In this document: positions 11,555-11,601 of the stretch, piece after piece | Numbering within the stretch: the stretch's first letter is position 1 | Layout of the letters: every line of letters begins with the position of its first letter | Assembly: GCF_056746865.1 (NCBI RefSeq) | Contig: NZ_CM163382.1 | Reading direction: 5' to 3' (one strand) | Length of the DNA stretch: 64,000 nt | Program-made: the position numbers and the translations under genes | Notes under the pieces: model-generated | Database searches by the model: none | Told to the model about the DNA's origin: nothing | What the model saw: the letters and a program-made list of their open reading frames with translations, nothing else

Positions 11555-11601
11555 GACTCATAATCGCTTGGTCGCTGGTTCAAGTCCAGCAGGGGCCACC
11601 A
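11555..11601 (+). tRNA. ileX: 3' 47 nt of tRNA-Ile(CAU) ileX (anticodon loop through CCA), not a complete gene; attR-type junction of the island
   Basis: GACTCATAATCGCTTGGTCGCTGGTTCAAGTCCAGCAGGGGCCACCA matches the 3' part of ileX from memory; the sequence just upstream (gaacttgcctcat) does not match the tRNA 5' half. Confidence 0.75.

Follow-up and report, generated by a model that had tools for sequence, protein, structure and literature searches.

The window, a 64,000-nt stretch of contig NZ_CM163382.1, carries at positions 11555-11601 (+) the sequence GACTCATAATCGCTTGGTCGCTGGTTCAAGTCCAGCAGGGGCCACCA, which is identical in 47 of 47 bases to positions 30-76 (to the CCA end) of the K-12 tRNA-Ile(CAU) gene ileX. 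The 47-nt sequence is present as a single copy (0 copies expected from 100 shuffles). The DNA to its right is collinear with K-12: the fragment is still joined to the native ileX rho-independent terminator (11610-11647, +; a hairpin at 11610-11637 with a 12-bp stem, plus a T-run, the same as in K-12), and the first core-genome gene beyond it is nfeF (yqjH; 11655-12419, −, from the ORF list and annotation). A first-pass annotation had reported that only the 3' 47 nt of ileX are present and that the tRNA terminator and yqjH follow directly, as in K-12; both statements hold. It had further described the window as devoid of an intact tRNA, in agreement with ARAGORN, which detects no tRNA gene anywhere in its 64 kb; no RNA family reaches its Rfam gathering score in the window either. 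Based on these two blanks, 11555-11601 is a fragment and not a gene. An Rfam search of 11450-11700 with a permissive E-value returned weak spurious matches (e.g., Plastid-ycf2 on the minus strand), and the tRNA model missed the fragment. The gene order at the empty site of K-12 is mug-ileX-nfeF, and in island-free genomes homology to the junction starts exactly at window position 11555, with foreign sequence to the left.

The foreign sequence nearest the fragment (11359-11554) is absent from K-12 and forms the island-derived P arm, located between the core and the start codon of an integrase gene, int. The corresponding spacers of Pantoea, Yersinia, Xenorhabdus and Vibrio can be aligned with the P arm, which presumably contains the int promoter; a simple consensus scan of the P arm detected no sigma-70 promoter. 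Two tandem copies of the repeat GGGTCAGGTAA (11406-11416 and 11418-11428, +) lie about −149 and −137 from the core. There are four exact copies of this repeat in the 49-kb locus, two per island end (0.52 matches expected at ≤1 mismatch), with the second pair at +59 and +71 after the CCA of a rebuilt tRNA gene (see below). The same repeats at the same spacing occur in other genera, with a diverged version, TTAGTCAAGTAA, in Vibrio; one Yersinia locus has three arm repeats, not two. Judged from this conservation, the tandem repeats are probably arm-type sites bound by the N-terminal Arm-DNA-bind_3 domain of the integrase. Their placement between int and the core suggests that int is probably negatively autoregulated, by analogy with the ptwF-intF arrangement. 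Pantoea, Yersinia and Xenorhabdus have an inverted arm-like copy, TACCTGACCC, close to the start codon of int. The E. coli element has a degenerate version of it (window 11359-11405), with possible consequences there for the regulation of int or for assembly of the intasome.

The int gene (10042-11358, −) encodes a tyrosine integrase of 438 aa and is transcribed away from the fragment. Its start is 196 nt left of the plus-strand fragment, with the att region and the arm repeats in between (the ‘OD’ shape), so the integrase does lie at the fragment-proximal end, as had been noted from the sequence. Three Pfam domains were recognized, PF13356 Arm-DNA-bind_3 (8e-14, residues 5-97), PF22022 Phage_int_M and PF00589 Phage_integrase (8e-10, residues 232-391), and the protein matches the PHROG_1 integrase family (7e-46). 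Its earlier designation as ‘P4-type’ is correct with respect to domain architecture, but not with respect to close relationship: identity to K-12 IntA, IntB and IntS is 19-24% (24% to IntA over a full-length alignment), and the score against NCBIfam PRK09692 (75.6 bits) is far below the cutoff of 434. These comparisons place the integrase in the broad P4-like superfamily, not in the close P4/CP4-57 family. The catalytic residues R269, K296, R367, H390 and Y400 are invariant in our alignment. At residue 364, where the HxxR motif normally has its first His, 6 of 6 aligned clade members have Arg (ARDLRR), and IntA and IntS have the usual His; as the replacement is clade-wide, it is probably tolerated. 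An IS3-family insertion splits int at the junction in strains WP7-S17-ESBL-01, HR5-1 and HR12-1, in which the island is presumably immobilized.

The remainder of the int-proximal island segment (1-11554, based on annotation of proxy genomes) has a GC content of 35-42% and holds, besides int, part of an alpha-galactosidase (raf) gene, a LacI-type regulator, an IS3 transposase, YagK/YfjJ-like genes, an AlpA-like gene and orphans. The AlpA-type protein (6622-6849, −; 75 aa), which PGAP labels a helix-turn-helix regulator, matches PHROG 2790 ‘excisionase and transcriptional regulator’ (3e-22) and is a candidate excisionase (directionality factor). Directly downstream of int is a gene for a 198-aa protein (9316-9912, −) that matches PHROG 7522 (6e-124), a phage-associated family of unassigned function. 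A 534-aa ORF (7629-9233, +; GC 35-37%), on the strand opposite to its neighbors, is a ‘hypothetical protein’ in all three proxies and has no Pfam, PHROG or PADLOC match, making it orphan cargo that adjoins the integration module. PADLOC returned no matches for seven island proteins, and no transfer genes were recognized in the stretch examined. Positions 1-1822 of the window lie inside an island-borne raffinose/sucrose utilization cluster (L001:27355-37057 in strain JSWP006), which comprises genes for an alpha-galactosidase, an MFS transporter, a GH32 invertase, a crr-like IIA protein, a kinase, a porin and a LacI-type regulator.

The window is E. coli DNA. None of 5,426 complete E. coli genomes is that of the exact source strain, and the leftward extension was read in proxy genomes that are at least 99.9% identical to the window. 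These are JSWP006 (8 differences in 13,766 nt), isolate F374 (flank match 100.0%, 18 differences in the first 12,819 nt) and RCAD0514 (100.0% identical over the island part). An intact tRNA gene with anticodon CAT adjoins mug in JSWP006 and F374 and is at ileY in RCAD0514 (ARAGORN, PGAP). It is found ~32.4 kb past the left edge of the window in JSWP006 and ~40.2 kb past it in F374, giving distances from intact tRNA to fragment of 44,026 bp and 51,801 bp, respectively. The island is thus 44.0-51.8 kb long, not 11.5 kb. The first-pass annotation had anticipated that the complete tRNA would lie beyond the left edge and that the island would exceed 11.5 kb, and had proposed a leftward extension as a check; carried out in the proxies, the extension recovered an intact tRNA-Ile(CAU) at the far island end. 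The length and left end of the source strain's own island are inferred from these near-identical genomes.

The displaced 3' fragment is on the same strand as the intact gene and 44-52 kb downstream of it, which is part of the signature of a tDNA island, and ileX is already on record in the literature as an integration site. We consider it very likely that 11555-11601 is the attR junction (the type of junction originally proposed) of a 44-52 kb, integrase-borne, CP4-like genomic island inserted in ileX, with the fragment as the tRNA-derived half of attR. Taken by itself, a window without an intact tRNA could also represent a decayed pseudogene, in which a deletion or IS rearrangement destroyed ileX and left no partner, so that ileY alone supplies tRNA-Ile2. 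There is much IS debris in the island, and E. coli W and B lost the tRNA at the ileY position by IS-mediated deletions (PMC3032704). Such decay is extremely improbable here, however, since the intact tRNA is at the other island end in all three proxies, and attL-type junctions (345 of the 5,426 complete E. coli genomes) are nearly as numerous as attR-type junctions (359). Furthermore, the sequence breaks at an identical nucleotide in all five genera compared, as fits site-specific recombination and not random deletion.

The proxies also reveal how the island is organized. Adjacent to the intact tRNA are genes for DUF4942, CbtA/YeeU, RadC, antirestriction, DUF932, Ag43 and GTPase proteins, the fragment end has the YagK/YfjJ-like genes, the AlpA-like gene and int, and the middle is variable, IS-riddled cargo (type I restriction-modification; raffinose/sucrose genes). 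Strain-variable cargo includes the raffinose/sucrose genes, type I restriction-modification, Ag43 and the CbtA/YeeU toxin-antitoxin pair. In F374 the island middle (L080:14630-24038) has another type I restriction-modification system, a DUF262 pair and the 1,911-aa anti-phage gene hhe. With the same ends and a different middle in F374 and JSWP006, the island acts as a variable platform for defense genes and other cargo.

The mosaic cargo raises the question of whether there are two elements: a small island, formed by the 11.5 kb within the window and equipped with an integrase, and in tandem with it an older CP4-like island that lacks one. Modules of the cargo are separated by IS and group II intron debris, the middles differ while the ends are shared (one type I system in JSWP006; another, together with the DUF262 pair and Hhe, in F374), and only 173 genomes have ≥80% of the int-proximal 11.5 kb compared with 359 that have the junction. 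Nevertheless, the 49-kb locus contains no internal tRNA fragment or core copy, even when up to 3 mismatches are allowed. The core block is present exactly twice, once per island end; without a third copy a tandem array was rejected, and the locus is read as one island. It encodes a single integrase, its overall gene order is that of K-12 CP4-6, and internal recombination and IS activity better account for the differences in cargo. An arrangement of two elements is thus very unlikely.

The point of exchange can be narrowed by a three-way alignment of attL, attR and attB, which have exactly in common a 20-nt block, GACTCATAATCGCTTGGTCG (11555-11574, +). At attR the sequence left of this block is that of the island, and at attL island-type variants occur to its right; exact identity of attL and attR is confined to the 20 nt, bounding the crossover to 11555-11574. 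The block includes the anticodon loop CTCATAA (11557-11563), and these 7 nt are most likely the overlap region. Homology to the tRNA starts at position 30 in each of E. coli, Pantoea, Yersinia, Xenorhabdus and Vibrio, and in attP it covers the gene from the anticodon stem-loop through its 3' end. This corresponds to the anticodon-loop sublocation of the Williams 2002 classification, in which attP homology reportedly extends from the anticodon stem-loop to the 3' end, with exchange in the 7-nt loop.

A second copy of the 47-nt repeat had been predicted upstream, and it is present at the left end of the proxies; however, it is imperfect, matching the fragment in 43 of 47 positions, with 20 nt exactly shared. 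The rebuilt ileX at attL (L001:2735-2810 in JSWP006) has the T-arm GTTGG-TTCAAAC-CCAAC in place of the GCTGG-TTCAAGT-CCAGC of the fragment and K-12. The four changes consist of a compensatory replacement of C50-G64 by U-A and two T-loop bases (GT to AC), and the gene is followed by a different, island-supplied terminator. The repeat is imperfect because the rebuilt tRNA has an island-supplied T-arm and its own terminator; as read from the sequence, the working tRNA is a chimera of a host 5' part and an island 3' part. For the source strain, the predicted attL would consist of mug, a chimeric ileX with GTTGGTTCAAACCCAAC, and then two copies of GGGTCAGGTAA at +59 and +71. In the ileY integrant RCAD0514, T6 of ileY pairs with G67 of the island, resulting in a U6-G67 wobble in the acceptor stem that replaces the native U-A.

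To place the island-type 3' half in a broader context, we scanned the Enterobacterales (one genome per species) and located it at 62 places, 56 of which are intact tRNAs. Most of the intact copies (49 of 56) have no arm repeats downstream and native-looking terminators (e.g., in Kluyvera, Kosakonia, Edwardsiella and Lonsdalea), while the remaining 7 carry the island P' arm. The other 6 places are fragments, 3 of them beside the island P arm. The T-arm of the island is thus the native tRNA-Ile2 type of other genera, which directly attests to a horizontal origin of the island.

These features are consistent with a mechanism in which the tyrosine integrase would recombine a circular attP with the tRNA gene, with the exchange taking place inside the 20-nt block that spans the anticodon loop and variable region. 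The attP would bring its own copy of the tRNA 3' part and terminator, so that the gene would be rebuilt at attL as a host 5'/island 3' chimera, and the original host 3' part with its terminator would be pushed to the right end. The displaced fragment, having neither a promoter nor the 5' half, would be inert. In the attP of this integrase clade, int would precede the tRNA-like segment on its 5' side and be divergently transcribed; following integration, it would then always be positioned beside the fragment.

The layout was surveyed at 9 loci representing 4 orthologue groups (53-86% identity) in Pantoea, Yersinia, Xenorhabdus and Vibrio parahaemolyticus; full-length integrase orthologues are 78-86% identical. 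At all 9 loci a tRNA-Ile(CAU) 3' fragment with the same start nucleotide lies ~190-210 nt before the ATG, on the strand opposite to int, and none of the 9 has an intact tRNA within 2.5 kb of the orthologous int. Among the orthologues examined, and as far as their sequences indicate, an integrase at the fragment end is the rule for this clade. Members of the clade reside in very different elements: neighbors of the Xenorhabdus integrase include a Head_binding (tailspike-like) gene, and those of the Vibrio integrase include an HTH_17 protein (weak match) and a DUF3987 protein, a combination that recalls phage satellites. A Terminase_2 gene is located beyond the fragment at one Yersinia locus, the one with three arm repeats.

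The first-pass annotation had called an integrase at this end, and not next to the intact tRNA, the less common arrangement. This is accurate in general: among 1,273 tRNA-adjacent integrase genes, 736 were classified as ‘STI’ and 438 as ‘OC’, with SIT and OD together accounting for <8% (Panis et al. 2010, PMC2951348). It is not an oddity of the locus, since it holds for every clade orthologue examined. That count is based on annotated tRNAs, and fragments are rarely annotated, so it probably underestimates integrases at fragment ends. The fragment-end layout is uncommon overall, but it is documented, and it is invariant in the examined members of the integrase clade.

The closest precedent is CP4-6 of K-12, which has an intact thrW (+), cargo, intF (−) and ptwF, a ~49-nt thrW fragment that starts in the anticodon region. 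The two islands have a common order of tRNA, toxin-antitoxin, RadC, antirestriction, DUF932, GTPase, cargo, YagK or YagK-like gene, integrase and fragment. They differ in the tRNA used (thrW in CP4-6, ileX/ileY here), and IntF is only distantly related to the present integrase, with 25% identity over the catalytic domain and no good alignment of the N-terminal arm domain. The ptwF-intF pair is the OD example of Panis et al. (2010), who demonstrated experimentally that IntF represses its own gene ~23-fold (PMC2951348).

Integrases of the P4 family (IntA of CP4-57 at ssrA, IntB at leuX and IntS of KplE1 at argW) have the same Arm-DNA-bind_3 (DUF4102) N-terminus, central domain and tyrosine recombinase core as the present protein, and the nearby AlpA-type excisionase candidate is a further likeness to islands of this family. 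In contrast, K-12 intA, intB and intS are directly downstream of, and co-oriented with, the intact gene, whereas the present int is at the fragment end and divergent; moreover, their islands have a short 3'-terminal identity block, while the tRNA homology of the present island starts in the anticodon stem. Phage 186 resembles the present island in having ileY and ileX as alternative attB sites (PMC3448106). It differs in being a P2-like phage, and it is absent from the best 25 of the 324 phage records matched by the present integrase. The phage 186 integrase is short and lacks an arm domain. Finally, the Islander signature (Hudson, Lau and Williams 2015, PMC4383910) consists of a tyrosine integrase situated between an intact tDNA and a displaced 3' fragment that lies downstream in the same orientation. 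All of these elements are found here, the intact tDNA in the proxies, along with a precise empty site in other strains, and there is no difference in kind.

Both ileX and ileY serve as attB for the present island. RCAD0514 has, inserted at ileY, an island with a 100.0% identical int-proximal 11.5 kb and the same left junction (L078:5688-5763, L078:47425-47471), with both ileY flanks present and an ileY-type fragment displaced. We rejected an ileX/ileY inversion as the source of this copy, as both flanks in RCAD0514 are those of ileY. Of the 5,426 complete genomes, 98 have the ileY junction. That the island has inserted precisely at two paralogous sites speaks for recent activity of the integrase.

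Whether the island is still mobile is a separate question, as a genuine attR could bound an island that has become fixed and immobile, a remnant passed on only by vertical descent or through homologous recombination of its flanks. Across the 5,426 complete E. coli genomes, a synthetic attP query detected no attP-type junction at ≥80% coverage, and with it neither an excised nor a tandem form in assembled sequence. In addition, one of the arm-like sites has degenerated, int is disrupted by IS3 in some strains, and transfer genes went unrecognized in the stretch examined. On the other hand, the int ORF is full length with its five catalytic residues kept, both att arms are intact and an AlpA-type excisionase candidate is present. 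The identical int-proximal 11.5 kb at both ileX and ileY also requires site-specific integration in the recent past. On balance, a fixed remnant is possible but somewhat unlikely, and the island may be competent for excision at present. Related att sequences occur on plasmids as well: a 47-nt tRNA-Ile fragment that is 93.6% identical to 11555-11601 is present on the 243-kb plasmid NZ_CP194962.1, and the 129-kb plasmid NZ_CP183151.1 carries an annotated tRNA-Ile.

A broader reading would join these features into an undescribed arm-domain integrase clade of the Enterobacterales and Vibrionaceae that is dedicated to tRNA-Ile(CAU), has a fixed inverted attP polarity and Arg in place of the first His, and overwrites the T-arm and part of the acceptor stem of its target, so that island carriage could subtly alter the level or modification of the AUA-decoding tRNA. 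As a whole this is speculative, and we consider it improbable.

The attR junction itself is a textbook one with precedents, and no new biology is needed to explain it. Its main use is for annotation, since it defines, to the nucleotide, where a variable island of 44-52 kb ends on the right, and the 47-nt fragment alone suffices to predict island length and left end. Where int lies with respect to the intact tRNA is characteristic of the integrase clade and not an anomaly of the locus, which matters for island-finding software that expects an integrase beside an annotated tRNA. Worth recording are the conserved arm repeats, the dual use of ileX and ileY, the clade-wide His-to-Arg replacement and the chimeric tRNA with its foreign T-arm. 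The chimeric tRNA is a built-in marker of the island's foreign origin.
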